Shown: positions 2,749 to 23,821, numbered from the stretch's first letter. The stretch: DNA of 26,737 nt from Nitrospirota bacterium (GCA_035623825.1 DASPSR010000067.1:1-26737), one strand, 5' to 3'. The notes: a model not told the origin generated them from the sequence alone. Program-made: numbers and translations.

Positions 2749-3042
2749 CTACCGCAGCCGGGCGTTGCATTTCCCACAATGCTGTCTGTGGAGATCTCCG
2801 CCCAGATGCTTGCCGCAGTTTGGGCATCGCCAGTTATAGGCCGAAAAACCGATGAACGCGGCTATGCTGACGGCCTGCATCCCAAAAAGCGCATCTCTGG
2901 AGAACGCTCCCAGGAGGTCGGGGCGCTTGTGAAGCACTGCGCCCAGCAATACGATGAACATTGCCGCAGTGATGGCCACGATCTGCCGTTTCTGGCGCAT
3001 CCTGAACTCCTGCTTGATCTTTTCTGAGTCCTTCTTCTGCAT
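2749..3042 (-). CDS. Two-TM membrane protein with C-terminal Zn ribbon
   Basis: Two hydrophobic helices followed by WRCPNCGKHL...HCGKCNARL. Confidence 0.82.
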   Translation of the reverse strand: MQKKDSEKIKQEFRMRQKRQIVAITAAMFIVLLGAVLHKRPDLLGAFSRDALFGMQAVSIAAFIGFSAYNWRCPNCGKHLGGDLHRQHCGKCNARLR

Positions 3043-3225
3043 GTCTAAAAAGGTCTTTTATCGCATCAAGACGGGATTTTAAAAATAAGAATATGAATGC
3101 GTGGCAACCCGTCAGAATAACAATAGAATAGTACAGAAGGGATAAAAAAAAATCAAGCAAAGAAAACAAAGAGATAGTAAAGGAGATTGCAGGAATACAT
3201 GACTGGCGTAAAAACAAAAAAAATC

Positions 3226-3254
3226 TTGAAAAACTAAAATTATTGTGATATACT
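3226..3254 (+). promoter_or_regulatory. Sigma-70 promoter with extended -10
   Basis: TTGAAA-N17-TATACT, with TG at 3246-3247. Confidence 0.6.
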
Positions 3255-3260
3255 GTATCA

Positions 3261-3362
3261 TAAGGGCGGCGGCAAATCCAGGGAATGATCGCCATATGAT
3301 TTGCGGCGTAGCAAGTTATTTCGCAGTATGATGAAAGTCATAACCGTGAAGCGGTTTTTTTT
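3261..3362 (+). ncRNA. Candidate small RNA or attenuated leader, family unknown
   Basis: Begins about 7 nt after the -10; stems GCAAATC/GATTTGC, TATGAT-GAAA-GTCATA and AACCGT-GAA-GCGGTT; ends in T8. Confidence 0.35.
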
Positions 3363-6373: not shown

Positions 6374-6522
6374 GTAATAAAGGATAGTAGTCAAGCGTTC
6401 TTCGCTATTCATCATCCGCTGCGACCCTAGCGGCGGATGCGAACCGAGCAATCTCAAGGCACATATTGCGGGAGGATTGGTAAATCCCCGCGGAATGCCG
6501 GGAGAAGAAAGGAGTGATGAAC

Positions 6523-7071
6523 ATGAAGGAGAAGCTCTTGGACAGAGAAGGTTCAATGATGATGCCTCTGCTAGTAGGCGGTTTCTTCGGTGCAGGCACA
6601 GCGCTCCTGTTCGCGCCGAAACCCGGGAAAAAGATCAGAAATGATCTGAAACGGGTGTCGATGATCACGCGGGACCAGGTCTCAGAAGCCGTAGACAGGG
6701 GTAAGGAACTTTTTGAAGAAAGCCGAACAGCGGTGTCCAATGCCGTAGAAGCCGGGAAGAAGACCTATTCAGAAGGGATAGGGAAATTCGAAAAGTTCAC
6801 AAAGAAAGGTGAACGCTCGATATGGCTGCCGATCCTGGCAGGCGGTATCATTGGAGCAGGAATGGCTCTCCTATTGGCACCGAAATCGGGAAAGGAAGTC
6901 AGGGAGGATCTGAAACGATTTGCCGCGACAGCAGGCGATCGCGCCTCAGAAGCCGTGGACAGGGGCAAAATTCTCTACAGAGAAGGCAGAACAGCCGTCA
7001 CCAATGCCTTGGAAGCGGGCAAGAAGATATACACCGAAGGAATTGAGAAGTTCCGGCAAACAGCAGCGTAA
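6523..7071 (+). CDS. YtxH-domain protein with two tandem YtxH units
   Basis: GG..GAG.ALL.APK.GK..R.DL motif occurs twice, 88 codons apart; SD AAGGAG 8 nt before ATG 6523 (alternative starts 6514/6517). Confidence 0.9.
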   Translation: MKEKLLDREGSMMMPLLVGGFFGAGTALLFAPKPGKKIRNDLKRVSMITRDQVSEAVDRGKELFEESRTAVSNAVEAGKKTYSEGIGKFEKFTKKGERSIWLPILAGGIIGAGMALLLAPKSGKEVREDLKRFAATAGDRASEAVDRGKILYREGRTAVTNALEAGKKIYTEGIEKFRQTAA

Positions 7072-7150
7072 ACTGCTCTCGCCCGACCCGTCATTGATTT
7101 CATAGCCATTTTTCCCTGCTTCTGATGTGGACGCAGAAAAAATTCTCATC

Positions 7151-7186
7151 AGGGCAGCGACCAATTCAGGTCTCTGCCCTTTTTTT
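7151..7186 (+). terminator. Intrinsic terminator after the YtxH gene
   Basis: AGGGCAGcGACC-aattca-GGTCtCTGCCCT followed by a T run. Confidence 0.8.
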
Positions 7187-7398
7187 GTTCTCAAGACCTT
7201 CCGATGTCCACTGCAAAGCTTTTGTTCGAACGGAAACTGACCGCCTCTGGGTTCAGGCTCTGTTTGAGAGCCGGTGATATTGCATCACCGTCCGTCGCGT
7301 CGCGACGGGATTGCCCAGACCGAAGAAACGCTTCCCGGTGCCTGCTTCATGGACCCCGTTACCGCGGGACCACCACACAGCCGGGCTCGTCCCTGGTA

Positions 7399-8157
7399 TC
7401 ACAACGGCTTGATGCCCCGCGTGACCTCGTTCCGTATAAACTGCCTAATGATCTCCTGGTTCTGCGACGATGTACGCACAAATTGGAGTCCCATCCCTGG
7501 TTCGTTGTACGGTCCTCCGCCTGTCCGGTAGCTGGACCTGACCACAGCATCAAGTGCAATGACCCGGTCGTTCAGGCTTATTTGGAGGGAGAGCCGCGTG
7601 TCGATCGGTGCGGGCCTTAGGGTCCGCAGGAACATTCCGTGCTCGGATAGCACGGAGACGCACGCACCCTCGAGTTCGACGAGCGGCATGTTGCTCACGG
7701 TCACGGGCAGGTTCGTCCGGATACGAATGCTCATTCGCGGCGTTGTCTCCACAGCCGCCTCGACGGCACGAAACAGCTGCTCGGCCAAGACCGGCTTCTC
7801 CAGACAGTCGGTCACCCCGGCTTCTCGGCAGCGCTTATCGCCGATCAGATCGCCCTGTGCCGTCAGTACGATGACGGGAACTGCGACAGTGCCGGGATTC
7901 TGGCCGAGCCGGCGCATGAACTCAAGGCCGTTCATGCCCTTTAGGTCGAGCGAGGTAATAACGAGGGCCGGCGCTGCGATCGAAACCATCGCCAGGGCTT
8001 CCTCAGCTGTCGCGGCCATGGAGATACGGTAATCGAACCTTTGAAGGAGCATGGAGGTATAGAAGAGATTGTTGGCGTCGCTGTCCACGACGAGTAAGTA
8101 ACGAACGTTTCGATCAAGCCCGCCGCCTGACGAGATGCTGTACATATTTCCGTCCAT
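7399..8157 (-). CDS. REC-PilZ protein, paralog 4 in transcription order; Ser at the phospho-Asp position
   Basis: SD GGAGG 9 nt before ATG 8157; REC LLVVDSD...LVITSLDL...VLTA...LEKP; PilZ RMSIR...VLSEHG...PGMGLQF. Confidence 0.9.
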   Translation of the reverse strand: MDGNMYSISSGGGLDRNVRYLLVVDSDANNLFYTSMLLQRFDYRISMAATAEEALAMVSIAAPALVITSLDLKGMNGLEFMRRLGQNPGTVAVPVIVLTAQGDLIGDKRCREAGVTDCLEKPVLAEQLFRAVEAAVETTPRMSIRIRTNLPVTVSNMPLVELEGACVSVLSEHGMFLRTLRPAPIDTRLSLQISLNDRVIALDAVVRSSYRTGGGPYNEPGMGLQFVRTSSQNQEIIRQFIRNEVTRGIKPL

Positions 8158-8258
8158 AGGTTCTGCCCTCCACGTGCTTAAAGTACAGGGCTCAAAGCGC
8201 ACAACAGGGGTCTCTCTGCGTCCGTCCCATGTGCTTCCACGCGAATATGAAAGCCTCG

Positions 8259-9035
8259 CTACCAGTCATCCGGTAACACAGGGCGGTCGGTACTGCGCGG
8301 GGATACGCCGCGGGTGATTTCCTCGCGAATGTACTGCCTTATGAACTCCCTGTCCTCGGGCGCGATCCGGACGAACTTGAGTCCCATGCCCGGCTCCTTA
8401 AACAGGTCGCGGCCCTGGCCATAGGAGTAAAGAACCTCGGCTTCGGCTGAAACAAGCCTGTTCCTGACGAGGATCGTTAACATGAGCCGTGTGTTAACCG
8501 CCGCAGGCTTCAGCGTGCGAATGTATATGCCATGTTCTGAAAGGACCGTTGCGCACTCGCCCGTATCGCTGCTCAGGAGCACGCCGTTCACAGTCACTGG
8601 AAGCACTGTGGTAATTCGCAGGTTCTTTCGCGGCCTGGACTCGATTGCGGACTGGATTGCAGGGTATAAATCCTCCACCTGTACCGGCTTGTCGAGGCAG
8701 GCTGCGACGCCAGCCTCGCGGAACCGCTGCGCCGTGAGCAGGTCCCCTGCATGGGTGAGGACGATGACCGGGACCTGAGAGGTCCTCGGATCGAGCTTGA
8801 GCCGCAGGAACAGGTCATAACCGCTCATGTCCGGGAGAAACTGCGCGGTGACCACAAGGATCGGCGGCGCAATTGATGTCATGTCCAAAGCCTCGGCAGC
8901 GGTCTTCGCCGTGCACACATGGTACTGGAAGCGCTGGAGCAGAAGGGAGATGTAGACCAAGTCATTGGTGTCCCCGTCCGCTACCATTATGAAGCGGTTC
9001 ATCGTTTCGTTTTTTCCCCTCGTTCTGTCAGCCAT
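8259..9035 (-). CDS. REC-PilZ protein, paralog 3; Ala at the phospho-Asp position
   Basis: IMVADGD...LVVTAQFLP...VLTH...LDKP; RKNLR...VLSEHG...PGMGLKF; start is 9035 or 9002. Confidence 0.9.
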   Translation of the reverse strand: MADRTRGKNETMNRFIMVADGDTNDLVYISLLLQRFQYHVCTAKTAAEALDMTSIAPPILVVTAQFLPDMSGYDLFLRLKLDPRTSQVPVIVLTHAGDLLTAQRFREAGVAACLDKPVQVEDLYPAIQSAIESRPRKNLRITTVLPVTVNGVLLSSDTGECATVLSEHGIYIRTLKPAAVNTRLMLTILVRNRLVSAEAEVLYSYGQGRDLFKEPGMGLKFVRIAPEDREFIRQYIREEITRGVSPRSTDRPVLPDDW

Positions 9036-9225
9036 TGTCACCGTCCATGGAACTGGGACCCTGCGGGCAGATCTGATCACGCAAGGCCTATCCTGTCTTA
9101 TAGCTTACTCAAAGTCCATCGTTCAGCCACAGCATTGATGATCCGACGACACTGAATTTCAAGAACTGCGCAACCACTCGAGGAAAGATATATTCTCTGT
9201 GACCTTCGCATATGGCGACTCGCTA

Positions 9226-9963
9226 TCATTTGCCGCTCTTCGTGGTCTCTTCTCTGATGAACTGCCGGATAAAATCCTGGTCCTCGGATGCCATGCCAAT
9301 GAACTTAAGACCCATGCCCGGCTCTTTAAACGGTCCTTCGCCGTACATATGGCGGTAAAGAACCGAAGCTTTCGCAGAGACGCTCCGGTTGTTGATCTTG
9401 ATCTGCACGGTGAGCTGCTCGTTCTTCTGGTAGGGTTTGGCCATCGGCACGTACATGCCGTACTCGGACAGAATGGACGCGCATTCCCCCTCGATGCACT
9501 TAAGTGGAACATTGTTCACCGATACTGCCAGCCGCGTCTTGATGCGGATGTTTTTGCGCGGGGAGGGCTCAATGGAAGCCTGGACGGTGCGAAATAACTC
9601 CTCGGCCTGGACCGGCTTCGAGATGCAGCCGTCGGCTCCCTCTTCGAGGCACCGCTTCACTGTTGCTTCGTTTCCGTCGGGGATCAGGAAGACAACGGGG
9701 ACGGATGAGGTGCGCGGGTCCTGCTTCAGCAGGTGTAAGAGGTCCGTCCCGCTCATGCCTGGAAGGGATAAGTCTGCAATGACGAGAGCCGGTACTGCCA
9801 CGGCGACCATCTCGAGGGCCTGAGCTGTCGTGTTTGCGGACCAGACCTGGTAGTCGAAACGCTGGAGCAGCAACGACATGGAAAGCAACTCCTGTGCTTT
9901 GCTATCCACAACCAGGATATAGCGTTTCGTGCCGCTCTGCCCCTCGAATTGCTTGTCGAGCAT
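9226..9963 (-). CDS. REC-PilZ protein, paralog 2; phospho-Asp retained
   Basis: SD AAAGGAG before ATG 9963; ILVVDSK...LVIADLSLP...VFLIP...ISKP; RKNIR...ILSEYG...PGMGLKF. Confidence 0.9.
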   Translation of the reverse strand: MLDKQFEGQSGTKRYILVVDSKAQELLSMSLLLQRFDYQVWSANTTAQALEMVAVAVPALVIADLSLPGMSGTDLLHLLKQDPRTSSVPVVFLIPDGNEATVKRCLEEGADGCISKPVQAEELFRTVQASIEPSPRKNIRIKTRLAVSVNNVPLKCIEGECASILSEYGMYVPMAKPYQKNEQLTVQIKINNRSVSAKASVLYRHMYGEGPFKEPGMGLKFIGMASEDQDFIRQFIREETTKSGK

Positions 9964-10018
9964 GCTCTCTCCTTTGTTTATTGACCGCAAAGGTGTGCTG
10001 TGAGCCCTGAGCATAGAT

Positions 10019-10774
10019 TCAATCCGGATTGATGCCTTTTGTTACCTCTTCCCTGATGAACTGACCGATAAAATCCCGATCCTCGTTCGCAATGCTGGTG
10101 AATTTGAGACCCATTCCCGGCTCCTGGAACGGGCCCTCGCCGAACCGGTGGCTGTGCAGGACCATGGCCTCTATCGCAATGATCCGTGTTTTGATGACGA
10201 TCTTCAGGGAAAGCTTCGAGTTCATGGGGGAAGGCTTTAACGTACGTACATACATGCCGTGCTGCGAGAGCACGGTCGCGCACTCGCCTTCCCCGCCGCA
10301 ATCAAGCGGTTTGTTGTTCGCCATCACAGGCAGCCGTGTGTAGATCCGGATATGTTCTCGCGGCGTGTTCTCCATCGTTAATTGTACAACACGATACAAC
10401 TCCTCGGCCTGGACCGGCTTCCGGATGAGCACGGCGCCTCCCTCCTGGCATTTTCGCTCAACCTCCGGCGAGGGGTCCGCTGCCTTGATTACAACGGGCA
10501 CCCGGGATGTCCTTGGGTTCTCCTTAAGTTGCCGGAGAAGAACGAGTCCGCTCCTGTCTGTAAGGGAGAGATCGCAGATGATGAGGCCGGGCAGAGCAAC
10601 AGACCCCATCTCTATCGCCTCATCGGCGTTCCTCGCAGTGCAGATGTTATATTCGAAGCGCTGGAGCAGCATGGCGGTGGAATACAGCTCATTTGCATCA
10701 CTGTCCACAACCAGCAGATAACGGTGGTGTCGCTCGGACGTTCCACCAAAGGCTCCGGCTATGCATTCAGCCAT
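10019..10774 (-). CDS. REC-PilZ protein, paralog 1; phospho-Asp retained
   Basis: SD GAGGT; LLVVDSD...LIICDLSL...VIKAA...IRKP; REHIR...VLSQHG...PGMGLKF. Confidence 0.9.
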   Translation of the reverse strand: MAECIAGAFGGTSERHHRYLLVVDSDANELYSTAMLLQRFEYNICTARNADEAIEMGSVALPGLIICDLSLTDRSGLVLLRQLKENPRTSRVPVVIKAADPSPEVERKCQEGGAVLIRKPVQAEELYRVVQLTMENTPREHIRIYTRLPVMANNKPLDCGGEGECATVLSQHGMYVRTLKPSPMNSKLSLKIVIKTRIIAIEAMVLHSHRFGEGPFQEPGMGLKFTSIANEDRDFIGQFIREEVTKGINPD

Positions 10775-11094
10775 ATACCTCTACCTCGTGAAACGACAGA
10801 TGAGGCACCCAAGTTGCCCCGACTTCGTACGAGTCTTCAAGAGTGAAGTGCCCGGTATTAGATGGGCCCTCAATTATCATGCGTATAAGCTTCTCCCTCA
10901 TGCAAAGGTACTACAACTTGGTCCAAAAGGCAAGCGGATTTCGGAACATTGTCAACCCCAAGCTGAAATAAAGCTTGTTGCGTGGTGATCATAAGTCGTA
11001 AAGGACAAAGGTTTGAAAACCTTCGGCAGTGGGGGAAATAAGCCGTATTTGACCCTTTGGAGGCCATGTCATCCCACACTGTCCGAACAAATCC

Positions 11095-11123
11095 TTGACA
11101 ATAGGGTGTTAATATCCGATAAT
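11095..11123 (+). promoter_or_regulatory. Sigma-70 promoter of accA
   Basis: TTGACA-N17-GATAAT. Confidence 0.65.
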
Positions 11124-11224
11124 ATCGTCTGTTCTCTATACTGAGGACAGGTAGTCCTATCGATGCCGGAGCATGACAAAGAAGAAGTGCATTCTGCATC
11201 TTCATCAGCATAGAGGAGTACGAT

Positions 11225-12184
11225 TTGCCGCCGGAATACCTGGATTTTGAAAAACCGATCGCTGATTTGGAGAAGAAGATTGAGGAACTCACCCTCTTCA
11301 CCTCCAGTGGAAGCATTGACCTCGAGGAAGAAATTCTCAAACTGCATAAGAAGGCCGACCATCTGCGTGCCGAGATCTATTCGAAGCTCAACCCCTGGCA
11401 GAAGGCACTAATATCGCGCCATCCAAACCGTCCCTATACCCTGGAATATATAGAAGCCATGTTCACGAATTTCATGGAGATTCACGGCGACCGCAGTTTC
11501 GCCGATGACCCCGCCATCGTCTGCGGCATAGCCAAGCTCGACGGCGTGCCCATCGTTGTCATCGGCCATCAGAAAGGGAGGACCACCAAAGAGAAGATCC
11601 AGCGCAACTTCGGGATGCCAAACCCCGAAGGGTACCGGAAGGCGCTTCGCATAATGCGTTTCGCCGAAAAATTCAGTAAACCGCTCATCACCTTCATCGA
11701 CACTCCGGGTGCCTACCCGGGAATCGGCGCGGAAGAACGCGGGCAGGGCGAGTCGATCGCTCAGAATCTGTACGTGATGTCTGGCCTTAAGGTCCCCATC
11801 GTGACCGTGGTCATCGGCGAGGGTGGAAGCGGCGGAGCGCTTGCGCTCGGCATCGCCGACCGCGTCCTGATGCTCGAACACTCGATCTACTCCGTAATCT
11901 CCCCCGAGGGGTGCGCGGCAATCCTCTGGAACAACGGCTCAAAGGCAAATGAAGCTGCCGATCTGCTCAAAATGACTGCGCAAGACCTATTCCAGATGAA
12001 AGTGATCGATGAGGTGGTGGAAGAACCGATCGGTGGGGCGCACCGCGACCCGCGCAGAGCCGCCGAACTGCTCAAGGAAGCCGTAACGAGGAACCTCATG
12101 GAGATAAAAAACGTGCCACCGGGAGAGCTCGTCAGGCTGCGGTATGAAAAATTCAGAACGCTCGGGATATTCGACCAGATATGA
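11225..12184 (+). CDS. accA: Acetyl-CoA carboxylase carboxyltransferase alpha subunit
   Basis: YLDFEKPI, RNFGMPNPEGYRKALR, IDTPGAYPGIGAEERGQ, GEGGSGGALA; TTG start with SD GAGGAG. Confidence 0.98.
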   Translation: MPPEYLDFEKPIADLEKKIEELTLFTSSGSIDLEEEILKLHKKADHLRAEIYSKLNPWQKALISRHPNRPYTLEYIEAMFTNFMEIHGDRSFADDPAIVCGIAKLDGVPIVVIGHQKGRTTKEKIQRNFGMPNPEGYRKALRIMRFAEKFSKPLITFIDTPGAYPGIGAEERGQGESIAQNLYVMSGLKVPIVTVVIGEGGSGGALALGIADRVLMLEHSIYSVISPEGCAAILWNNGSKANEAADLLKMTAQDLFQMKVIDEVVEEPIGGAHRDPRRAAELLKEAVTRNLMEIKNVPPGELVRLRYEKFRTLGIFDQI

Positions 12185-12189
12185 ACCCG

Positions 12190-12543
12190 CTATGAGATAT
12201 CCTGATTCAGCAGCTCGACCGCCTTGCTGAGCTCTGCCATGGCATCCGGAAGACTGGAATAAGCGGACAAAAAGAGCAGGAGACAGTACTCGCCGCTAAC
12301 CGGCACGGCCAGTTCATTCCCATCTTCAAGCGAGAACAACACTGCCCGGACCGTTCCAAGTCCCAACCTGCCGGTTATCTCCTTGATCCGGTCGAGATGA
12401 ATCTCCTTCCACGCGCCGAGCAGTTTCATGTCCTTCTTAAGATTTCCCGCCTGTGAAATCGACTCTCCATCGTCATCCAGAAAGATCGCTGCTTGCGCGC
12501 CGTTCACCGATGTTACCAGGTTGTTCAAGATCGCATCGATCAC
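12190..12543 (-). CDS. Roadblock/LC7 (MglB-like) domain protein
   Basis: GTG start after GGAGGAAGAG; ILNNLVTSVNGAQAAIFLDDDGE...YCLLLFL fits the roadblock pattern; the longer track ORF extends into dgkA. Confidence 0.8.
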   Translation of the reverse strand: MIDAILNNLVTSVNGAQAAIFLDDDGESISQAGNLKKDMKLLGAWKEIHLDRIKEITGRLGLGTVRAVLFSLEDGNELAVPVSGEYCLLLFLSAYSSLPDAMAELSKAVELLNQDIS

Positions 12544-12566
12544 CTCTTCCTCCGCGACTCGTTCCC

Positions 12567-13271
12567 CTACGAGGTGAACAGCCAAAAAAATAAGGCCGTC
12601 AGGCCTGCGCCGAGTGCCGCACCCCATACGACCTCGATGGGGCGGTGGATTCCGCTCGACCACCTGCTCCAGCTTACGATGACCGCAACAAGAAGGGTCA
12701 CGGCACCAACGATCGTCGATTTCGTCAGGTTCATGGATGCTGCCCAGATGGAGAACGATACCGCCGCATGGCCGCTCGGCATGCCGCCCCTGAGCGGTTC
12801 TCCCTTGCCGAGAAGAGCCTTGATGATAATCACGATGATGATGACGGACGCAAGCGACACGAAGGCCACCACGTCGCTCTGGGCTTTTCTGAGATGCCAG
12901 ATCCCTGTGAGAACACATGTCCGGAACGCAGGGTAAAGGATAAGGTACGCCAGCGTCAGCGCTCCGAGCGATGCGACCAGCACGACGCCTGCCGCGATGT
13001 CCTTCGCGATCTTAGCGAGCGGGTGATACTCAACGGAGATCATGTCCACGGTGACCTCGATCGCGGTGTTCAGCATCTCCGTTACGAGCACGAGCACGAT
13101 GGCCATGGTGAGCAGGATAAAATCTGTCCTCGTGATGTTCAGAACGAGGCTGAGAACGAGCGTCATCAGCGCGGCAACCAGGTGATAGCGCATGTGCCGC
13201 TGGGTCTTGACAGAGTAGATGACCCCTTCGATCGCCAGGTTAGCCCTTTCGGTCCACGATTTCGGTTTCAT
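12567..13271 (-). CDS. dgkA: DgkA-type diacylglycerol/undecaprenol kinase fused to a PAP2-like domain
   Basis: EMLNTAIEVTVD and AKIAKDIAAG (prokaryotic DAGK); GMPSGH and SRWSSGIHRPIEV (PAP2 motifs C2/C3). Confidence 0.92.
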   Translation of the reverse strand: MKPKSWTERANLAIEGVIYSVKTQRHMRYHLVAALMTLVLSLVLNITRTDFILLTMAIVLVLVTEMLNTAIEVTVDMISVEYHPLAKIAKDIAAGVVLVASLGALTLAYLILYPAFRTCVLTGIWHLRKAQSDVVAFVSLASVIIIVIIIKALLGKGEPLRGGMPSGHAAVSFSIWAASMNLTKSTIVGAVTLLVAVIVSWSRWSSGIHRPIEVVWGAALGAGLTALFFWLFTS

Positions 13272-13705
13272 CGGGAAAGGCCTTTCAGGAGCTGCCGCTC
13301 CTTCCGCTGCATTCTGAGGGCCTCGTGCGATCCCCGCTCGTGGTCATACCCGAGCAGGTGAAGAAGGCCATGGACCAGAAGACGTTCGATCTCGCAGCTG
13401 AGCGGATGCCCCGCTTCCATTGCCCGCCGGGAGGCAGCTGGCACAGAAATCACTATGTCGCCGAGAACGGTGGGCTGGATGTCGGGAAACATCCCCTCTT
13501 GCAGCGCGAACGATAGCACATCCGTGGTCTTGTCCTTGCCGCAGTATCGCCGGTTCAGCGAGCGCATGGCACGGTCTCCGGTCAACAGCACGCTCACTTC
13601 GGCGTCAGGACGGCCGACGCTCCGCAACAACTTCCGGAGTTTTGTTCTGAGCGAAGCCGTTGCCGGCCTTCGGTTCTTCAGATTGTTTTTTATCCTGATG
13701 TTCAC
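13268..13705 (-). CDS. ybeY: rRNA maturation endoribonuclease YbeY
   Basis: TDVLSF, LGDIVIS, HGLLHLLGYDH; GTG start inferred. Confidence 0.93.
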   Translation of the reverse strand: MNIRIKNNLKNRRPATASLRTKLRKLLRSVGRPDAEVSVLLTGDRAMRSLNRRYCGKDKTTDVLSFALQEGMFPDIQPTVLGDIVISVPAASRRAMEAGHPLSCEIERLLVHGLLHLLGYDHERGSHEALRMQRKERQLLKGLSR

Positions 13706-15398
13706 CGCGCCTTTTTTCTCCGGAAAACTCCTTGCCGGGATAGTCGATCCGGTGGTGGAAGATTCCTGTAAGGATGAGATTGAAGCTCCGCGCAATGACG
13801 CGGAGGTCTTTGAGCGTAAGGTCGCATGTACTGAGCTGATCATCAAGGAAAATGCGCGTGATGACGCTGTTCGTCAGCGCCTGGATCCGCTGCGGGGTCG
13901 GATCTTCAAGGGTCCTCGACGCTGCTTCGACGGCATCGGCGAGCATGACGATGGCGGCGACTTTCGTCCGCGGTCTCGGGCCGGGGTAGCGGTAATCCTC
14001 TTCAGCAATCTTCACGTAAGGCTGGAGTTCCTTTGCTTTCTGGTAGAAATACGTGATCAGCGATGTGCCGTGATGCTGCTGGATGATGTCGATGACCTCC
14101 GACGGAAGACTATATGCTCGAGCGACATCCACGCCGTCCTTCACGTGCGCTGCAATAATGAGGCTGCTCATGGACGGCGTGAGGCGGTCGTGCTTGTTCT
14201 CGGCAATGCGCTGGTTCTCAATGAAATATTCCGGTTTCCGTATCTTTCCCACATCATGATAATACGCCCCAACACGGGCGAGGAGTTGGTTCTCGCCGAT
14301 GGACTCGGCCGCAGCCTCGGCAAGGTTACCGATCACGATGCTGTGGTGATACGTCCCTGGGCTCTTGTAGACAAGCTCCTTGATCAGCGCCTGGTTCGGA
14401 TCAAGGAGTTCGAGAAGCTTGATGTCCGTGGCTATGTCGAAAAGCGTTTCAAAAAACGGCAGTGTCACCGAGACGATGATGGACACTATGACTGCGCCGA
14501 GGAATCCAGCGGTCAGATCGTAGGTGCCGCGAACCAGAAATTCCCCCCTGTAGAGGTCGATGCCGGTTATAGCGATGAGATTGACAATGCCCGTGAAGGC
14601 CCCGGCCTTAAGCACCGCAGTTCTCCTCTTTGAATGGAACACGGAAAGCGCCGACGCGATGCTGCCCAGGAAATAGTAGAGCGGCATGAAGGGGTCGCCC
14701 TGGAACACGATTCCAAACAGGATGCTCACGATGAAGGAGAAACCGAGGGCCATATGAAAATCGAGAAGGAGGCTCGTGAGCATGGCACCCGCGGCAACGG
14801 GGAGAGCAAACCCCACTGTTGCCGCATCCAACTGTATCTTGTCCGAAAGGAGCGACACGACATATTTCGAGAATAGCGATATGACGACGGTTATGAGGAG
14901 GAGGAACGCGAGCAGGAACATCTTCCTCGTATCGGTGAGCAGCGACGGACGATAGCGCTTGATGTCGCGATAGAACAGATAGAATAAAGACAGGATGAGC
15001 AGACAAAGCCCGAAATAAGCGTAGAGCCGATTGCCGACGCCTTCGCGGCGGGCCAGCTCTTCCATAATCCGTGCGGCCCGCTCCGTGACCCGTCGCCCGG
15101 CCTCAACGATGACCTCGCCCTTCGTCACCTTGTAGGAAAGAATGGTCTCGTCCGGCCCCGTGTATTCGATATACAACGTATAGGGGGCTGTGATGGTCCT
15201 CGTTGCCACGTCTCCCCTATCCAGAAGAGGTGTCCGCGGCAGAATCACGAATGCGAGGAGTAAGGTCGTGATGAGCGCGAGCCCGATGTTCCTGAGCCTG
15301 ATCGTACGCGTAACCTCCTCCAGCGACTCTTCCTTGTCCGGATCGGGGACCTGGAGTTTGGGAAGGAGCTTCACGACGGTTTCATGTTTGCTGTTCAT
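13605..15398 (-). CDS. 7TM-HD (HDIG) phosphohydrolase, PgpH/YqfF-like cyclic-dinucleotide phosphodiesterase
   Basis: Multi-TM region followed by PGTYHHS, YYHDVGK, YFIENQ, QHHGT, MLADAVEAASR; lies between phoH and ybeY. Confidence 0.92.
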   Translation of the reverse strand: MNSKHETVVKLLPKLQVPDPDKEESLEEVTRTIRLRNIGLALITTLLLAFVILPRTPLLDRGDVATRTITAPYTLYIEYTGPDETILSYKVTKGEVIVEAGRRVTERAARIMEELARREGVGNRLYAYFGLCLLILSLFYLFYRDIKRYRPSLLTDTRKMFLLAFLLLITVVISLFSKYVVSLLSDKIQLDAATVGFALPVAAGAMLTSLLLDFHMALGFSFIVSILFGIVFQGDPFMPLYYFLGSIASALSVFHSKRRTAVLKAGAFTGIVNLIAITGIDLYRGEFLVRGTYDLTAGFLGAVIVSIIVSVTLPFFETLFDIATDIKLLELLDPNQALIKELVYKSPGTYHHSIVIGNLAEAAAESIGENQLLARVGAYYHDVGKIRKPEYFIENQRIAENKHDRLTPSMSSLIIAAHVKDGVDVARAYSLPSEVIDIIQQHHGTSLITYFYQKAKELQPYVKIAEEDYRYPGPRPRTKVAAIVMLADAVEAASRTLEDPTPQRIQALTNSVITRIFLDDQLSTCDLTLKDLRVIARSFNLILTGIFHHRIDYPGKEFSGEKRRGEHQDKKQSEEPKAGNGFAQNKTPEVVAERRPS

Positions 15399-16356
15399 CG
15401 TTTGTCTCGTATCTCTCGTATGCCTTGATGATCTGCTGTACCAGCTTATGGCGAACCACGTCGCGGTTCGTAAAATACACGAATCGGATGCCCTCGATGC
15501 CCTCAAGGATCTTCTGGACCTCGATCAACCCAGAATTTCTGCCGCTTGGAAGATCGATCTGGGTCACATCGCCCGTCACCACTGTCTTGGAGTTGAATCC
15601 CAAACGCGTCAGGAACATCTTCATCTGTTCCGTGGTCGTGTTCTGCGCTTCGTCGAGTATTATGAACGAGTCGTTCAAGGTCCGTCCGCGCATGAAGGCA
15701 AGAGGCGCGATCTCTATATCCCCGCGCTCCACGAGCTTGTTCGCCTTTTCCGTTTCGATCATGTCATAAAGGGCGTCATAGAGCGGCCGCAGGTAGGGAT
15801 GGACCTTTTCGTACAGATCGCCGGGCAGGAAGCCGAGTTTTTCGCCCGCCTCTACTGCGGGCCGCACAAGGATGATCCTGCTTACTTCTCGCCTGAGGAG
15901 CGCGGAAACCGCCGTTGCCATGGCGAGATAGGTCTTGCCTGTCCCGGCGGGCCCTATGCCGAAGACGATATCATGCTGTTTTATCGCCTCGATGTACCTG
16001 CGTTGTGTCTCATTTTTCGGTGCAACAGGCCGTTTCCTGCTTGATACCGGGATCGCTTTCTGAAAAATGTCTTTCAAGGAGGACGATGGATCAGAAGCGT
16101 ATGCATGAATGGCGGAGTTCACATCATCCTTATGGCTGATGGTGCCTTGCTCCAGCATGGCGGCTAACTCTTTGATGAGATGTTCTACCTTTGCAACGGA
16201 CTTTTCCTCACCCTCGATCTGGATCTTGTTCCCACGCGCATGCAGAATAACGCCGTACGTGTTCTCGATAAGCCTAAGGTTCTTGTCCATATCTCCGAAG
16301 AGATTCGGCAGGGAAAGTTCGTTTTCTATGGTCAAACTTACGGCGGCAGTCTTCAT
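15382..16356 (-). CDS. phoH: PhoH-family ATPase
   Basis: GPAGTGKT, RPAVEAGEKLGFLPGD, AFMRGRT, DEAQN, GDVTQIDLP, DVVRH. Confidence 0.97.
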   Translation of the reverse strand: MKTAAVSLTIENELSLPNLFGDMDKNLRLIENTYGVILHARGNKIQIEGEEKSVAKVEHLIKELAAMLEQGTISHKDDVNSAIHAYASDPSSSLKDIFQKAIPVSSRKRPVAPKNETQRRYIEAIKQHDIVFGIGPAGTGKTYLAMATAVSALLRREVSRIILVRPAVEAGEKLGFLPGDLYEKVHPYLRPLYDALYDMIETEKANKLVERGDIEIAPLAFMRGRTLNDSFIILDEAQNTTTEQMKMFLTRLGFNSKTVVTGDVTQIDLPSGRNSGLIEVQKILEGIEGIRFVYFTNRDVVRHKLVQQIIKAYERYETNDEQQT

Positions 16357-20021: not shown

Positions 20022-21425
20022 GTGAGTTCGCGGCCTTCGAAAAGGGGTCTCCCGATACCTCCCGCTATCCTAGACAAGCTCGTTCCCACCAAGCTCTTTG
20101 CAAGGCTGAACATAGCAAGTAAAATGCTCCTCGGATACATGACGCTCGTTCTGCTCACGGTTGTCGTTGTCGTCTATGCCCTCATCAGCCTTCAGCGGAT
20201 CAATAGTCTGAACAAGAGAATCGTACAGGTTGATATCGTGGTGCAGGAAGCAGCCGATAAGATGCTCGACGCCCTCCTCGCCCAAGACACGTTCGAGAAG
20301 CGCTACTTGATCCTCAAAAGCGAAGACATGCGCAGTCTTTTTGCCAGGCGCGGCGACGAGTTCCGTCTGTGGCGTTCCACTCTCAGGAAACTTCCCGATA
20401 CGAGCGGGGTCCCTATTGCTGCAATTGATGATCTCTACAGAAGGTATAATGACCTTTTTAACGAGGAAATGGACCTGATCCGTACGAACAAGATCAGTCA
20501 AGCAACAGCCATTTCAAACAACGAACTAAAGGACACGCTTGAGAGTCTCCTCGATACGATCAGGACCATGTCCGCCGCCGCCAAGGAAGCACAGGATGCC
20601 AAGATGAATAGGATCAGCACCATCGGCGGGGCTGCCTTTTTCACCACGTCCGTACTCTGCATTATCAGCATCCTCGCCGGGGCCATTGCCGGACTCGTGG
20701 TCACCCATCATATCTCCTCTTCGATCAACCGGTTAAAGATAGCGACGGAACATGTCGCCGAGGGGAATTTCGACTTTGACCCGGAGATCAAGACAAAAGA
20801 CGAGATCGGCAGCCTTTCGGAGGCCTTTCTGACCATGGGCAAGAGGTTGCGCAAGCTCGAAGAAATGTATCTCGACGCCAGCCCTCTTACCCGCCTGCCG
20901 GGAGGGATCGCCATTGAAAACGTCCTGAAAAAAAGGCTCGAGTCGGTCCAGCCCATCGCCTTCTGCGTGCTCGATCTCGACAACTTTAAGGCGTTTAATG
21001 ACCGTTACGGGTACGCAAACGGCAGCGAGGTGATCAAGGAGACTGCGCATATCATCGAGGATGCAGTTAAGGCCAAAGGAACGCCTGATGATTTTATCGG
21101 CCATGTCGGAGGCGACGATTTCGTCGTCATCACGACCCCTGAGTTCATGCGTGATATCTCGACTGAGGTCATCAGCCGGTTCGACCGACGTATCCCCGAC
21201 TTTTACGATCCGGAAGAGCGTGCGCGGGGGTACATCCTCGGGAAAACGAGACAGGGTGTCGAGATGCAGTTCCCCATCATGACCATCTCCATTGCAATCG
21301 TGTCGAATGAGCACCGGAAGCTCACAAACCCTCTTGAGGCCTCGGAGATCGCCGCAGAGCTCAAAGACTATGCCAAGACCATCCCGAAGAGCGTCTTTGT
21401 GGTTGATAAGAGGAGGGGCTCGTGA
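20022..21425 (+). CDS. Membrane diguanylate cyclase: TM-periplasmic helical sensor-TM-HAMP-GGDEF
   Basis: Two TMs; HAMP (DEIGSLSEAF); PLTRLPG, DLDNFKAFNDRYG, HVGGDDF. Confidence 0.92.
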   Translation: MSSRPSKRGLPIPPAILDKLVPTKLFARLNIASKMLLGYMTLVLLTVVVVVYALISLQRINSLNKRIVQVDIVVQEAADKMLDALLAQDTFEKRYLILKSEDMRSLFARRGDEFRLWRSTLRKLPDTSGVPIAAIDDLYRRYNDLFNEEMDLIRTNKISQATAISNNELKDTLESLLDTIRTMSAAAKEAQDAKMNRISTIGGAAFFTTSVLCIISILAGAIAGLVVTHHISSSINRLKIATEHVAEGNFDFDPEIKTKDEIGSLSEAFLTMGKRLRKLEEMYLDASPLTRLPGGIAIENVLKKRLESVQPIAFCVLDLDNFKAFNDRYGYANGSEVIKETAHIIEDAVKAKGTPDDFIGHVGGDDFVVITTPEFMRDISTEVISRFDRRIPDFYDPEERARGYILGKTRQGVEMQFPIMTISIAIVSNEHRKLTNPLEASEIAAELKDYAKTIPKSVFVVDKRRGS

Positions 21426-22103: not shown

Positions 22104-23009
22104 TTAATCCTTCATGAGTGAAGAAGGTTCCGAAGACGGGGATAAGTTCAAACGCTCATAGGGCATTAATTTTGACTCGCTTGTTGTTGTGACTTTCCCG
22201 GATGAATCGATATAGTAGCTGCCGCCGTACGGCTCTTGAGGAAGGGCGTCGATAATGTGCTTTTTCATTAGATCCTCAAGGCTCCTTGGATACACGCCGA
22301 ATCTCTGCTTGTACGACACTACCGCTTTTTCAAGATAAAGCACGCCGCGAAGGGCAGTGAGGCGGGTTTCGTACTCCGTGCGCAACTTGGGGTCATCAGT
22401 ATGTTCTAATATGTATTCTTGAAAGGTGATCGCATTTTCCGTTCTTCTGTCTTTATATGCCAGTTTTGTGGCGAGGTCGGCATAGATGGCACTCGCGCCC
22501 GGCCTTCGCGCCGCTTCCATAAGGAATTTACTTGCCGTGTCATTATCGTCCAAAAAGTAAAAACTGTTGAAGCCGATATAAAATGGCAACATGAAATCCC
22601 AAGTTCGGTAAGAGCTGCCTTTTTCCAGCAACTCATTCGTTTCCTTTATCAGCCCTCCATCCCAGGTCAGATTTGCGTTCCCGAAGTAATAAGGATCTAA
22701 AAAATACGGGTCGAGACTTGCTGACGCATCAAGAACATGATACAGCCACTTCCATTCCCATGGCTTGACCCTCGGATTCTCTTTCCTCTCGTAAGTGCCG
22801 CCTAAAAAAACCAGTGCTTTCAGGAACAAAAAATCAGAGGCGAGGCCGTGGAACTCGAGTGCGGTTACCCTTAAAATTGGCGACGGCATCACATAGGCCG
22901 TATCTTCGCCCTTAGGGATCAACTTTTCCTGCTCGGTAATCTTTCTCAAAGAAATGATATGTACCGTGAGGAGAGCAATGCACAAAATAATCGTCAACAG
23001 TCTCCCCAT
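22104..23009 (-). CDS. Type IV pilus accessory protein, Myxococcus PilG / Geobacter Xap-like, 301 aa
   Basis: ATG overlaps the permease stop (TAATG); N-terminal TM, LDPYFLDPYYF, TPR-like helices, C-terminal YPRSLEDL...PQEPYGG; context next to pilin and ABC genes. Confidence 0.78.
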   Translation of the reverse strand: MGRLLTIILCIALLTVHIISLRKITEQEKLIPKGEDTAYVMPSPILRVTALEFHGLASDFLFLKALVFLGGTYERKENPRVKPWEWKWLYHVLDASASLDPYFLDPYYFGNANLTWDGGLIKETNELLEKGSSYRTWDFMLPFYIGFNSFYFLDDNDTASKFLMEAARRPGASAIYADLATKLAYKDRRTENAITFQEYILEHTDDPKLRTEYETRLTALRGVLYLEKAVVSYKQRFGVYPRSLEDLMKKHIIDALPQEPYGGSYYIDSSGKVTTTSESKLMPYERLNLSPSSEPSSLMKD

Positions 23010-23821
23010 TATGGAAACTCCCGAAGCCTGAAGATGATCGCAGCTCCCGTTATCGCCAGGGCAGTGTAAATCAACCCGTATGTTACAGTCCAGAGAATAT
23101 ACGATGCTGGAAGGAAAAGGGAATGGGCAGCTTGAATTTTCAGATTGAAGACTGATAAATTTGGAAAGAGATAATAGGCCAACTGCACCAGTTTCACCGT
23201 TGCAGCTGAAACATGGATACCAACAGTCTGAGGCGCATCCACCAGCGCTTTCACGTCGCTGAGGGACTGACCGATTATGTACACAATGACCGTCAGGACC
23301 AATGTAATGAATGACGTTGATGTAAAAGATGCGAAGAAGAACGCCAATGCTGATAGCAATATCATGGACAGCGTGTTGAAAGACAGAGCCAGGAGGATCA
23401 TCGGCCACGAGAACCTCGGGAAATAGTTTGGATATACCATCTTGATCAATTGGATGGACAACGCGGCGCACACGCTCAAGAAGACCATGGTAGTGATTAT
23501 GAGAAGGGCCATCCCCAGGAACTTGCCCAGAATGTACTGGGACCTTGATATCGGACGGGACAACACCATATAAATCGTTTTCTTGTCCAAGTCCTTTGCC
23601 ATCAAATTGATCCCGACGAACAACACGAGAAGCAGGCCGCTCAACGATACAGCCGAAAGCGCGATGTCTATGGCTACCTTTCCAACTTCTTGCATGAACA
23701 TGCCGGAGATGAGGAAATTAGCGATGAAAAACAGGAGCGCGAGCAGGGTGATCCCGTATAGTGCCCGGTTCCTAATGCCTTCTTTAAAAGTTATCAGCGC
23801 AACAGGCCAGAGAGTATTCAT
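23009..23821 (-). CDS. ABC transporter permease, PilI-like
   Basis: Six TMs; ITFKEGIRNR, KTIYMVLSRPISRSQYILGKFLG, YYLFPNL. Confidence 0.92.
   Translation of the reverse strand: MNTLWPVALITFKEGIRNRALYGITLLALLFFIANFLISGMFMQEVGKVAIDIALSAVSLSGLLLVLFVGINLMAKDLDKKTIYMVLSRPISRSQYILGKFLGMALLIITTMVFLSVCAALSIQLIKMVYPNYFPRFSWPMILLALSFNTLSMILLSALAFFFASFTSTSFITLVLTVIVYIIGQSLSDVKALVDAPQTVGIHVSAATVKLVQLAYYLFPNLSVFNLKIQAAHSLFLPASYILWTVTYGLIYTALAITGAAIIFRLREFP

Follow-up and report, generated by a model that had tools for sequence, protein, structure and literature searches.

The 26,737-nucleotide stretch of Nitrospirota DNA that we analyzed (the window) carries four tandem genes that arose by ancient duplication within a receiver-PilZ family expanded in one uncultivated Nitrospirota family. 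As read from their sequences, every copy is without two or more of the five residues of the catalytic pocket, and none is a canonical receiver. With moderate confidence, we interpret the four proteins as phosphorylation-independent c-di-GMP effectors, which would take their input through the PilZ domain and present the pseudo-receiver as an output surface, as in the Cle proteins of Caulobacter.

The array occupies positions 7399 to 10774 on the minus strand and consists of four co-oriented genes, each of which matches the Pfam profiles for Response_reg and PilZ (Table 1). A first-pass annotation of this DNA had described four co-oriented genes with one architecture and three shared motifs, a description that our open reading frames, Pfam matches, and pairwise identities (46 to 54%) bear out, and LLQRF(E/D/Q)Y, EPGMGL(K/Q)F, and (F/Y)IR(E/N)E(V/T/I)T are indeed common to all four. 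The likeliest start codon of copy B is the ATG at 9966, preceded by AAAGGAGAG and giving a protein of the same length as its database homologs, and that of copy D is at 8157, preceded by GGAGGG.

Table 1. Coordinates of the receiver-PilZ array and related features
Feature	Coordinates	Strand	Remarks
Copy A	10019-10774	-	251-aa ORF
Copy A domains	pseudo-receiver, residues 21-130 (10385-10714); PilZ, residues 139-241 (10052-10360)	-	
Copy B ORF	9226-10014	-	262 aa as open frame
Copy B, preferred start	9226-9966	-	246 aa from ATG 9966 with Shine-Dalgarno
Copy B domains	receiver, ~9583-9918; PilZ, ~9253-9558	-	
Copy C ORF	8259-9080	-	273 aa from GTG 9080
Copy C, listed form	8259-9035	-	~258 aa; start uncertain (GTG 9080, ATG 9035, or ATG 9002)
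Copy C domains	receiver, ~8655-8990; PilZ match, 8325-8549	-	
Copy D ORF	7399-8202	-	267 aa as open frame
Copy D, preferred start	7399-8157	-	252 aa from ATG 8157 with Shine-Dalgarno
Copy D domains	receiver, ~7762-8094; PilZ, 7432-7737	-	
Divergent intergenic region, copy A/accA	10775-11224	.	450 bp; presumed promoter region of array
Canonical receiver-PilZ protein, same genome	G000:C56:15141-15947		269-aa frame

The array is flanked on one side by radical SAM, MFS, and YtxH genes and on the other by accA, DgkA-PAP2, YbeY, 7TM-HD, PhoH, CobO, and SOD genes. No kinase was found in the array, in agreement with the first-pass annotation, or elsewhere in the window, and the genome's 34 HisKA matches all fall on contigs other than that of the array. 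The gap between copy A and accA contains a single weak sigma-70-like site (minus strand, 11017-10988; 9/12 matches), which we do not regard as evidence of function because promoter-like sites were no more common in 6900-11400 than in shuffled sequence. A scan of the same interval found no minus-strand terminator-like sites between the four genes, a result that says nothing about operon structure, and an Rfam scan of the window at gathering thresholds detected no c-di-GMP riboswitch and no other known RNA. Two short pieces from one RNA library with possible DNA content (run X10), a 227-nt contig that maps to 10402-10628 in copy A and a 183-nt contig that maps to 7754-7936 in copy D, give a weak hint that the array is transcribed, and the parts they leave uncovered need not be silent.

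Of the three profile families that had been proposed for a check, two gave matches above their cut-offs. Copies A to D scored 48, 71.5, 52.2, and 65.2 bits against Response_reg (PF00072; gathering cut-off, 30.2) and 25.5, 26.3, 25.6, and 35.6 bits against PilZ (PF07238; gathering cut-off, 22.5). The third, TIGR02266, was the best sub-Pfam match of the C-terminal domain in copies A, C, and D (35.8, 43.2, and 41.8 bits), but its curated cut-off is 68.7 bits, so these copies are not members, and for copy B it was absent among the best 25 families listed. By Pfam, the set has no DNA-binding or enzymatic domain. The other copies are 46 to 51% identical to copy A and 47 to 54% identical to copy B, and since the E values against copy B run from 2e-66 to 2e-73, the similarity among them is not due to chance; at 46 to 54% identity, the paralogs must be old.

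The AF2 model of copy A (pLDDT, 90.5; pTM, 0.84) has the five strands and five helices of the receiver in the order expected for a (beta-alpha)5 fold, followed by a PilZ beta-barrel and then a C-terminal helix at residues 230 to 245. In a Foldseek search of the PDB, the receiver half matched CheY, RR468, and PhoB with an rmsd of 1.2 to 1.8 over 110 to 126 columns; among the 50 matches listed, there was no solved two-domain receiver-PilZ chain, and the receiver half alone was matched. Conservation among the paralogs is high in the alpha5 region. No continuous stretch is better conserved than the one leading from helix alpha5 (L126, Q131, E135) through P138 to R139...R143, and the RxxxR arm starts about four residues past the receiver helix.

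We compared the receiver pockets of the four copies in the order acidic pair / phospho-site Asp / Thr / Lys, with the next residue in parentheses. Copy A has D,S / D / A / K, copy B has D,S / D / I(P) / K, copy C has D,G / A / T(H) / K, and copy D has D,S / S / T(A) / K. These residues are exactly those claimed initially, with Asp in A and B, Thr in C and D, Lys in all, and DS or DG for DD. No copy combines DD, Asp, Thr/Ser, and Lys, the full set of a canonical phosphorylatable receiver, and the initial view that none is a normal response regulator was thus sound. All four are pseudo-receivers (PsR) as defined in PMC12632262; C and D are also aspartate-less receivers (ALR), which A and B, with their phospho-site Asp, are not. 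At the aromatic switch position (CheY Y106), copies A to D have L, C, C, and C. A gap-free HMMER alignment of copy B with PleD pairs D-S with D9-D10, D with D53, I with T83, and K-P with K-P, and in the copy A model, D24-S25 follows beta1, D68 and A98 close beta3 and beta4, respectively, and K119 follows beta5. Database names such as "response regulator" and "CheY-like chemotaxis protein" overstate what proteins of this family can do.

The loss of the pocket extends across the family. All five active-site residues occur together in 0 of 175 members, and the position of CheY D13 is Asp in just 1 of the 175. In other samples, Asp occurs there in 0/49 members from 21 genomes, in 1/120 metagenome homologs, and in 3/72 sequences that each represent a 50%-identity cluster. 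On a 127-leaf tree, the minimum number of state changes is at least 21 at D57, at least 17 at T87, and at least 17 at K109. Pocket states are specific to orthogroups, and they are stable down to 50% identity. The copy B orthogroup (n = 53) keeps Asp57 in 49 members and K/R109 in all 53, with I/V/L at T87 in 52, S or N at D13 (acidic in 1/53), and Gly at D12 in 28. In the copy A orthogroup (n = 14), Glu replaces Asp in 10 members, the orthologs of two congeners likewise have Glu at the phospho-site, and the Thr87 position is Ala in 14/14, while copy C orthologs retain A/T/H.

These inherited combinations (Asp + Ile/Val + Pro in B, Asp/Glu + Ala in A, Ala + Thr + His in C, and Gly-Tyr...Glu + Thr in the group of a fifth paralog, C65) raise the idea that the pocket of each orthogroup, rather than simply decaying, has been converted into a site of its own, passed on stably, for a different small ligand or partner. 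On this view, the array would be a bank of two-input integrators, combining c-di-GMP at the PilZ domain with a second cue at the former phospho-pocket. If true, this would be a kind of signaling protein not so far described, although we consider it a long shot.

Alternatively, copies A and B might still be phosphorylated via a non-canonical pocket, with an orphan kinase or a small molecule as the phosphodonor, and C and D would be independent of phosphorylation. The retention of Asp57 and K/R109 in the copy B clade and the abundance of HisKA matches in the genome are both consistent with this, and orphan partners are common, PixA being likewise described as having no neighboring kinase (PMC8316039). 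However, the copy B clade has lost the metal-binding pair and carries I/V/L at Thr87, and the copy A orthogroup flips between D and E with Ala fixed at the Thr87 position, whereas, according to PMC12632262, the phosphoryl oxygens are held one each by T, K, and the DD-bound metal. Moreover, an Asp that is never phosphorylated can be conserved for a structural role, as in GlnR (cited in PMC12632262). Phosphorylation of A and B is thus improbable in our view, although the joint retention of Asp57 and K/R109 leaves room for an unconventional use of the copy B Asp57.

The first-pass annotation had seen reciprocal damage in the four pockets and had suggested that the proteins may act as hetero-oligomers. 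Across the 175 members, the raw association between Asp57 and Thr87 was indeed negative (odds ratio, 0.13), but this reciprocity was an artefact of over-sampling of the copy B clade. It was gone in the 72 cluster representatives (D and T, 12; D and non-T, 6; non-D and T, 23; non-D and non-T, 31) and in 12 supported phylogenetically independent pairs, where Thr87 changed the same way in 1.3, changed the other way in 0.7, and stayed unchanged in 9.9. Given this lack of co-variation, along with the rarity of Asp at D13, the absence of the quintet, and the Glu of the copy A orthogroup, reciprocal damage does not stand as a meaningful rule; the Asp/Thr reciprocity is a fact of one genome only and is not itself significant.

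Hetero-oligomers, in which Asp-keeping A and B and Thr-keeping C and D complement or need each other to make a signaling unit, would suit a tandem, co-oriented array whose order is shared by two congeners and, in part, by a related contig. They would also suit the conservation of the alpha5 region and the finding in PMC12632262 that fifteen among the available pseudo-receiver structures are dimers without phosphorylation. However, arrays of other genera have other residue mixtures and other copy numbers, including five genes in tandem in genome G013 with C/A/S/D/S at the Asp position, and Asp57 and Thr87 are not coupled in evolution. Since the active site of the receiver fold sits inside a single domain, residues cannot be lent between subunits, and since the D13 acid is absent from every copy, no combination of copies restores the quintet. 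A complex prediction for copies B and C, run without controls, gave scores of 0.28 and 0.21 (mark, 0.32) and speaks neither for nor against their binding. With the Asp/Thr association absent once relatedness is controlled, complementation finds no support, and we give such assemblies only a slim chance.

Purifying selection acts on both domains of every copy. Per-copy dN/dS was 0.09 to 0.20 against a related contig (L053; 85 to 90% identical in protein) and 0.11 to 0.19 against two congeners, with 0.15 to 0.20 for A, 0.17 to 0.19 for B, 0.09 to 0.12 for C (the lowest of the four), and 0.16 for D; by domain, receiver halves gave 0.07 to 0.25 and PilZ halves 0.08 to 0.24. The catalytic residues vary from copy to copy, as they might if the quartet were redundant duplicates in neutral decay, but that explanation is refuted by dN/dS values of 0.09 to 0.25 in every copy and both domains at dS of 0.2 to 1.0. 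Intact reading frames in all four copies, the stability of the orthogroup pocket states, and the age of the paralogs likewise argue against it, and we assign simple decay, which the first-pass annotation had named as a reading that dN/dS could reveal, next to no probability.

The order A-B-C-D is kept in both congeners (G001 and G002), and the related contig keeps A-B-C before stopping within or just past C. Members of the family were found in 62 of the 63 genomes sampled from one Nitrospirota family, compared with 9 of 237 from the phylum's other families, as expected of the lineage-specific module that had been suggested, and they often form tandem arrays, with many paralogs per genome. Around approximately 70 related loci, the recurrent neighbors were accA (11), an ABC-F ATPase (11), DgkA (9), PCuAC (7), and a PP2C-like phosphatase (6), with no kinase and no obvious functional partner among them. 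Receiver-PilZ is a listed architecture in published censuses of response-regulator output domains. We found no printed description of the Nitrospirota family in the literature searched, with subscription journals and supplementary tables (the PMC12632262 datasets and the 10.1101/814665 supplements) lying outside its reach.

Unlike the pocket, the PilZ ligand motifs are conserved. The first motif, RxxxR, reads REHIR, RKNIR, RKNLR, and RMSIR in copies A to D. Of the second, for which the standard given in 10.1101/814665 is [D/N]hSxxG, all four have the hSxxG part as L-S-x-x-G (V-L-S-Q-H-G in copy A) but carry V, I, V, and V at the [D/N] position. RxxxR and the S and G of hSxxG were found in 49/49 members from the 21 genomes, 120/120 metagenome homologs, and 70 to 72 of the 72 cluster representatives, where h is hydrophobic in 72/72. 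These invariant motifs make c-di-GMP binding by the four copies plausible, and the genome is equipped for c-di-GMP synthesis, with 14 full-length GGDEF matches.

[quoted passage not shown] The V, I, V, and V of copies A to D point this way, as do the scarcity of D or N at this position (19/72 representatives) and its at least 14 state changes on the tree, and PilZ proteins that do not bind are known, including PlpA (PMC8316039) and the tPilZ protein Xcc0612 (10.1101/814665). Yet a ligand-free PilZ domain is hard to reconcile with motifs that are invariant while the receiver pocket drifts freely. According to 10.1101/814665, PilZ domains without binding typically show disrupted motifs, and PA2989 binds c-di-GMP despite having Ser at the [D/N] position (bioRxiv 10.1101/814665). 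We therefore consider a loss of binding unlikely.

Returning to the effector reading, we infer that the four proteins bind c-di-GMP, are not phosphorylated, and use the receiver as their output. In this scheme, c-di-GMP would be bound by the PilZ barrel and the RxxxR arm, and the bound ligand would re-orient or re-shape the receiver, probably at its alpha4-beta5-alpha5 face, so that the receiver could serve as an output or partner-binding surface. Input phosphorylation would have been replaced by c-di-GMP, and the receiver would not be switched by aspartate phosphorylation. Each paralog would carry its own fixed pocket chemistry and probably have different partners. Counting against this reading are the V or I at the guanine-contacting [D/N] position in all four copies, the strong retention of Asp57 along with K/R109 in the copy B orthogroup, the weakness of the transcription signal, and the recurrent neighbors accA, ABC-F, DgkA, and PCuAC, which give no clue to a partner.

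A 2025 review (PMC12632262) calls the on/off switching of PsRs a mystery, and for this question the family is an unusually clean natural example, with hundreds of sequences in which the pocket is lost and an invariant ligand-binding domain is attached directly on helix alpha5. If c-di-GMP binding is confirmed, the Cle principle would also cover a full PilZ domain, a further phylum, and organisms with no flagellar switch protein detected, and these small soluble proteins would be suited to determining structures of a receiver driven without phosphate.

[quoted passage not shown] Like Cle, the array proteins have a single receiver-fold domain followed by an Arg-rich C-terminal element (c-di-GMP binding in Cle), with several paralogs per genome. 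Unlike Cle, which by definition joins a CheY-branch receiver to a short Arg-rich C-terminal peptide (ARR) that serves as the c-di-GMP site, they have a full PilZ barrel of approximately 100 aa, and they are therefore not Cle proteins. Cle proteins act on FliM, whereas we found no FliM in the array's genome, which is 89.65% complete; in addition, the catalytic pocket is lost outright in the receiver-PilZ family, and the phylum is different.

PixA of Myxococcus xanthus is likewise a small protein made up of these two Pfam domains, and it binds c-di-GMP via RxxxR (PMC8316039). However, its PilZ domain is N-terminal and its C-terminal receiver is canonical, with all conserved residues and with genetics that point to phosphorylation at Asp180 (PMC8316039), whereas the array copies have the receiver first and degenerate and are not of PixA type. 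VpsT, FleQ, and ShkA also have pseudo-receivers, and in these proteins c-di-GMP sets the protein state, with the pseudo-receiver working by oligomerization or domain docking and not by phosphotransfer, as described in PMC12632262. Unlike the array copies, VpsT and FleQ are DNA-binding regulators, ShkA is a kinase, and c-di-GMP is bound at non-PilZ sites (PMC12632262). TIGR02266 is a PilZ-like paralogous domain of Myxococcus and Geobacter, and the array copies fall far below its cut-off.

The last comparison comes from the same genome, where the canonical receiver-PilZ protein listed in Table 1 has the same domain order, a similar size, RxxxR, and D-I-S-x-x-G. It matches copy B weakly and in the receiver alone (E, 1.1e-4), and, unlike the array copies, it keeps DD, D, T, and K as read from sequence. 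Thus, the same cell carries an intact version of this architecture.

The quartet consists of four minus-strand ORFs, each encoding a receiver domain (Response_reg, 48-71.5 bits) and a PilZ domain (25.5-35.6 bits) that score above the Pfam gathering scores in all four proteins. This agrees with the first-pass annotation, which had described four co-oriented genes of common architecture, and the three sequence motifs that it listed as shared were found in 4/4 copies. The copies are 46-54% identical to one another and are separated by gaps of ~52 nt (A-B), 190-225 nt (B-C), and 101 nt (C-D). Read from its Shine-Dalgarno-supported start, copy B encodes 246 aa, the same length as its database homologues.

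Features of the window, of other contigs of its genome (G000), and of a congener locus (L032, genome G001). Pocket strings give the acidic pair/phospho-Asp (D57)/Thr (T87)/Lys (K109) in CheY numbering.
Feature	Position	Strand	Remarks	Pocket
copy A	10019-10774	-	ORF	D,S/D/A/K
copy B	9226-10014	-	ORF; start placed at 9966 by Shine-Dalgarno sequence	D,S/D/I/K
copy C	8259-9080	-	ORF; start uncertain	D,G/A/T/K
copy D	7399-8202	-	ORF; start placed at 8157 by Shine-Dalgarno sequence	D,S/S/T/K
YtxH gene	6514-7071	+	two YtxH-like domains; convergent with copy D	
RNA-library contig	6581-7102		522 nt; word depth 42	
7TM-HD gene	13605-15506	-	7TM-7TMR_HD + HD	
HAMP/partial-GGDEF gene	20022-21425	+	467 aa	
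ORF	22104-23471	-	455 aa; no Pfam match at E <= 0.001	
ORF	2834-3295	-	153 aa; no Pfam match at E <= 0.001	
ORF	12190-12918	-	242 aa; no Pfam match at E <= 0.001	
partial GGDEF match	C17:8959-9255		protein of ~470-480 aa	
partial GGDEF match	C27:67931-68188		protein of ~470-480 aa	
canonical receiver-PilZ	G000:C56:15141-15947			DD, D, T, K
second pseudo-receiver-PilZ type	G000:C58:25559-26416		Gln at Asp site, Cys at Thr, Arg at Lys	
second pseudo-receiver-PilZ type	G000:C34:10946-11650		Gln at Asp site, Cys at Thr, Arg at Lys	
PCuAC lipoprotein gene	L032:4024-4497		158 aa; 59.6 bits	

Every detail of the residue-by-residue reading of the phosphorylation pocket was upheld by alignments and by a structural model. 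When copy B was aligned with PleD by HMMER, without gaps, its D-S fell on D9-D10, the Asp on D53, the Ile on T83, and K-P on K-P. In an AlphaFold2 model of copy A (pLDDT 90.5, pTM 0.84; built from 90 aligned sequences), D24-S25 follow beta1, D68 and A98 sit at the ends of beta3 and beta4, respectively, and K119 follows beta5. On these grounds, the sequence-based assignment holds. By the definition in a 2025 review (PMC12632262), all four copies are pseudo-receivers, of which C and D also qualify as aspartate-less receivers. At the aromatic switch position (CheY Y106), copy A has Leu and B, C, and D have Cys; two more Cys, one ending alpha4 and one immediately ahead of the PilZ motif hSxxG, are conserved at >=90% in the close subfamily and at <85% in a wider 127-sequence set. 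These three Cys positions could provide a redox or metal lead.

The quartet's homologues are concentrated in one lineage. Within G000, a fifth full-length paralogue (35% identity) lies on another contig, C65. Among 40 relatives, full-length matches at E <= 1e-20 were present in 23/24 genomes of the same taxonomic family and in 1/16 from other Nitrospirota families, with up to 11 copies per genome, often in tandem and in one genome (G013) five in a row. In a wider sample, in which eight candidates were scored per genome, matches at E <= 1e-30 occurred in 62/63 genomes of the family versus 9/237 from other families of the phylum, where they were weak (1e-31 to 1e-37), which supports the earlier suggestion of a lineage-specific module. 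Of the 80 loci listed from a species-representative collection, 54 were titled Nitrospirota, Nitrospirae, Nitrospiraceae, or Nitrospiria, all uncultivated MAGs, and 26 were cyanobacterial, matching by the receiver half alone. Finally, of the best 150 matches among 1.84 billion cluster representatives, 72 were full-length members and the rest were mostly multi-receiver kinases. Databases name the homologues "response regulator" or "CheY-like chemotaxis protein," and clusters in the ESM Atlas carry the automatic name "PilZ/Response regulator receiver domain-containing protein."

Altered pockets of this kind might reflect nothing more than the decay of duplicated genes. We estimated dN/dS by the Nei-Gojobori method against L053, a related contig (85-90% protein identity, dS 0.43-0.50), and against two congeners (dS 0.73-0.98). 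Values for each copy, which the first-pass annotation had proposed as the way to recognize decay, were well below 1 (0.09-0.20): 0.20, 0.17, and 0.09 for A, B, and C versus L053, and 0.15 and 0.16 (A), 0.18 and 0.19 (B), 0.12 and 0.11 (C), and 0.16 and 0.16 (D) versus the congeners. Receiver halves (0.07-0.25) and PilZ halves (0.08-0.24) were similarly low. Both domains of all four copies are thus under purifying selection, and simple decay is therefore excluded. The duplications are also old, since copy B shares 47-54% identity with its in-genome paralogues, close to the 50-57% that it shares with its best matches in other genera.

An alternative is that the damage itself carries meaning, with two copies keeping Asp57 and two keeping Thr87 as complementary partners. 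The wider family did not support this reading. Loss of the second acidic residue is family-wide: Asp stands at the CheY-D13 position in 0/49 members from 21 genomes, 1/120 metagenome homologues, and 3/72 representatives, and none of 175 family members holds all five catalytic residues together. In the 72 representatives, position 57 is occupied by D (18), E (26), A (12), S (11), or another residue (5), position 87 by T or S in 35, and position 109 by K in 45. A tree of 127 leaves showed at least 21 changes of the state D57=D, and at least 17 each of T87=T/S and K109=K. The congener orthologues (L032 and L033), which keep the same gene order, have Glu for Asp in A, D/I in B, A/T/H in C, and A/T in D, and position 57 across the copy A orthogroup is Glu in 10/14 and Asp in 4/14.

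A raw Asp57/Thr87 association in the 175-sequence set was negative (odds ratio 0.13), but copy B had served as the query, and its clade therefore dominates this sample. Of the 72 representatives, 12 had both residues, 6 Asp alone, 23 Thr alone, and 31 neither; in 12 pairs that are phylogenetically independent, well supported, and unlike at Asp57, Thr87 changed the same way in 1.3, the opposite way in 0.7, and not at all in 9.9. With no association in either comparison, we conclude that reciprocity is a coincidence rather than a family rule, and the pattern is incidental, a chance of which orthogroups co-occur in this genome. Each orthogroup does keep a stable pocket state. In the copy B clade, with 53 members at identities down to 50%, Asp57 is found in 49/53, I/V/L at T87 in 52/53, Pro at T+1 in 40/53, and K/R109 in 53/53, with the acidic pair gone and D12 replaced by Gly in 28/53. 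The first-pass interpretation is supported in part. These are lineage-specific pseudo-receivers maintained by selection, and the quartet is a local sample of such a pseudo-receiver-PilZ family; the significance given to the reciprocal pattern does not stand.

The PilZ motifs, unlike the pocket, are conserved. RxxxR, like the S and G of hSxxG, is kept in 49/49 members, 120/120 metagenome homologues, and 70-72/72 representatives (h hydrophobic in 72/72), and receiver P110 is kept in 120/120 homologues and 69/72 representatives. Since the longest highly conserved run extends from helix alpha5 (L126, Q131, E135) through P138 to R139...R143, the predicted c-di-GMP arm begins ~4 residues past the last receiver helix. 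The second PilZ motif was refined to [D/N]hSxxG by Galperin and Chou (bioRxiv 10.1101/814665), and the sole departure of copies A-D from the canonical signature is V, I, V, and V at the [D/N] position, which is D or N in just 19/72 representatives. That study describes both PA2989, which has Ser at this position and still binds c-di-GMP, and PilZ domains with disrupted motifs that have lost binding. Val or Ile here could affect the predicted binding by copies A-D.

Other receiver-PilZ proteins of G000 include a canonical one on C56, with RxxxR and DISxxG, and a second pseudo-receiver type on C58 and C34, unrelated to the quartet, with RxxxR and N-I-S-x-x-G. Since the former is intact and the latter separately degenerate, the architecture is in general use in this genome, with more than one degeneration of its receiver.

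The array had been reported to lack a kinase, and no histidine kinase was found in the whole window either; none of G000's 34 HisKA matches lies on the quartet's contig. In this genome, whose completeness is 89.65%, there are 14 full-length GGDEF matches, 17 PilZ matches, and seven T2SSE-type ATPases, with no match to FliM. The quartet is flanked at lower coordinates by radical SAM and MFS genes and one tandem YtxH gene and at higher coordinates by accA (divergent), DgkA-PAP2, YbeY, a 7TM-HD protein, PhoH, CobO, and SOD; farther out in the window are a class A PBP, a HAMP protein with a partial GGDEF match, an ABC ATPase, a TPR protein, and a pilin-like protein. Recurrent neighbors of related loci gave no lead to a partner, and an Rfam scan of the window gave no match.

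The 7TM-HD protein, a 7TM receptor whose HD hydrolase domain is intracellular, lies in the ybeY-phoH neighborhood ~3 kb from the quartet. The HAMP protein matches GGDEF over profile positions 5-102 of 161 (54 bits), and with two more G000 proteins showing the same partial match it may represent a truncated or divergent cyclase-like family. In the two congeners, a PCuAC lipoprotein (copper-chaperone domain) gene lies between the A and B orthologues, at L032 and the matching L033 stretch (genome G002); it is missing in the window and on L053, with A and B directly adjacent there, and PCuAC-like genes occur near related arrays at 7 loci. Evidence of expression is confined to three contigs from a single RNA library, possibly with DNA in it: 183 nt (copy D), 227 nt (copy A), and 522 nt (YtxH gene), the last at ~10x the depth of the two inside the quartet.

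These features suggest how the proteins might work. Judging from the motifs, c-di-GMP would bind the PilZ barrel and RxxxR arm; because this arm is continuous with alpha5, binding could re-position the receiver or re-shape its alpha4-beta5-alpha5 face. The pseudo-receiver, free of phosphotransfer, would then present a surface for downstream partners, as purifying selection on a catalytically dead domain suggests.

The logic of this mechanism has been demonstrated for the Caulobacter Cle proteins (PMC5677366). These CheY-like receivers carry an Arg-rich peptide at the C terminus, and it is c-di-GMP binding, not phosphorylation, that activates them; the authors speculate that c-di-GMP took over control from CheA. 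VpsT, FleQ, and ShkA, covered in PMC12632262, offer more examples of a pseudo-receiver within a protein that responds to c-di-GMP. Our literature search, whose reach did not extend to supplementary tables or subscription journals, found no printed description of the quartet family. It falls outside Cle, having a full PilZ domain instead of a short peptide, and differs from PixA, in which PilZ precedes a canonical receiver (PMC8316039). It would belong to the wider kind of c-di-GMP-linked pseudo-receiver proteins.
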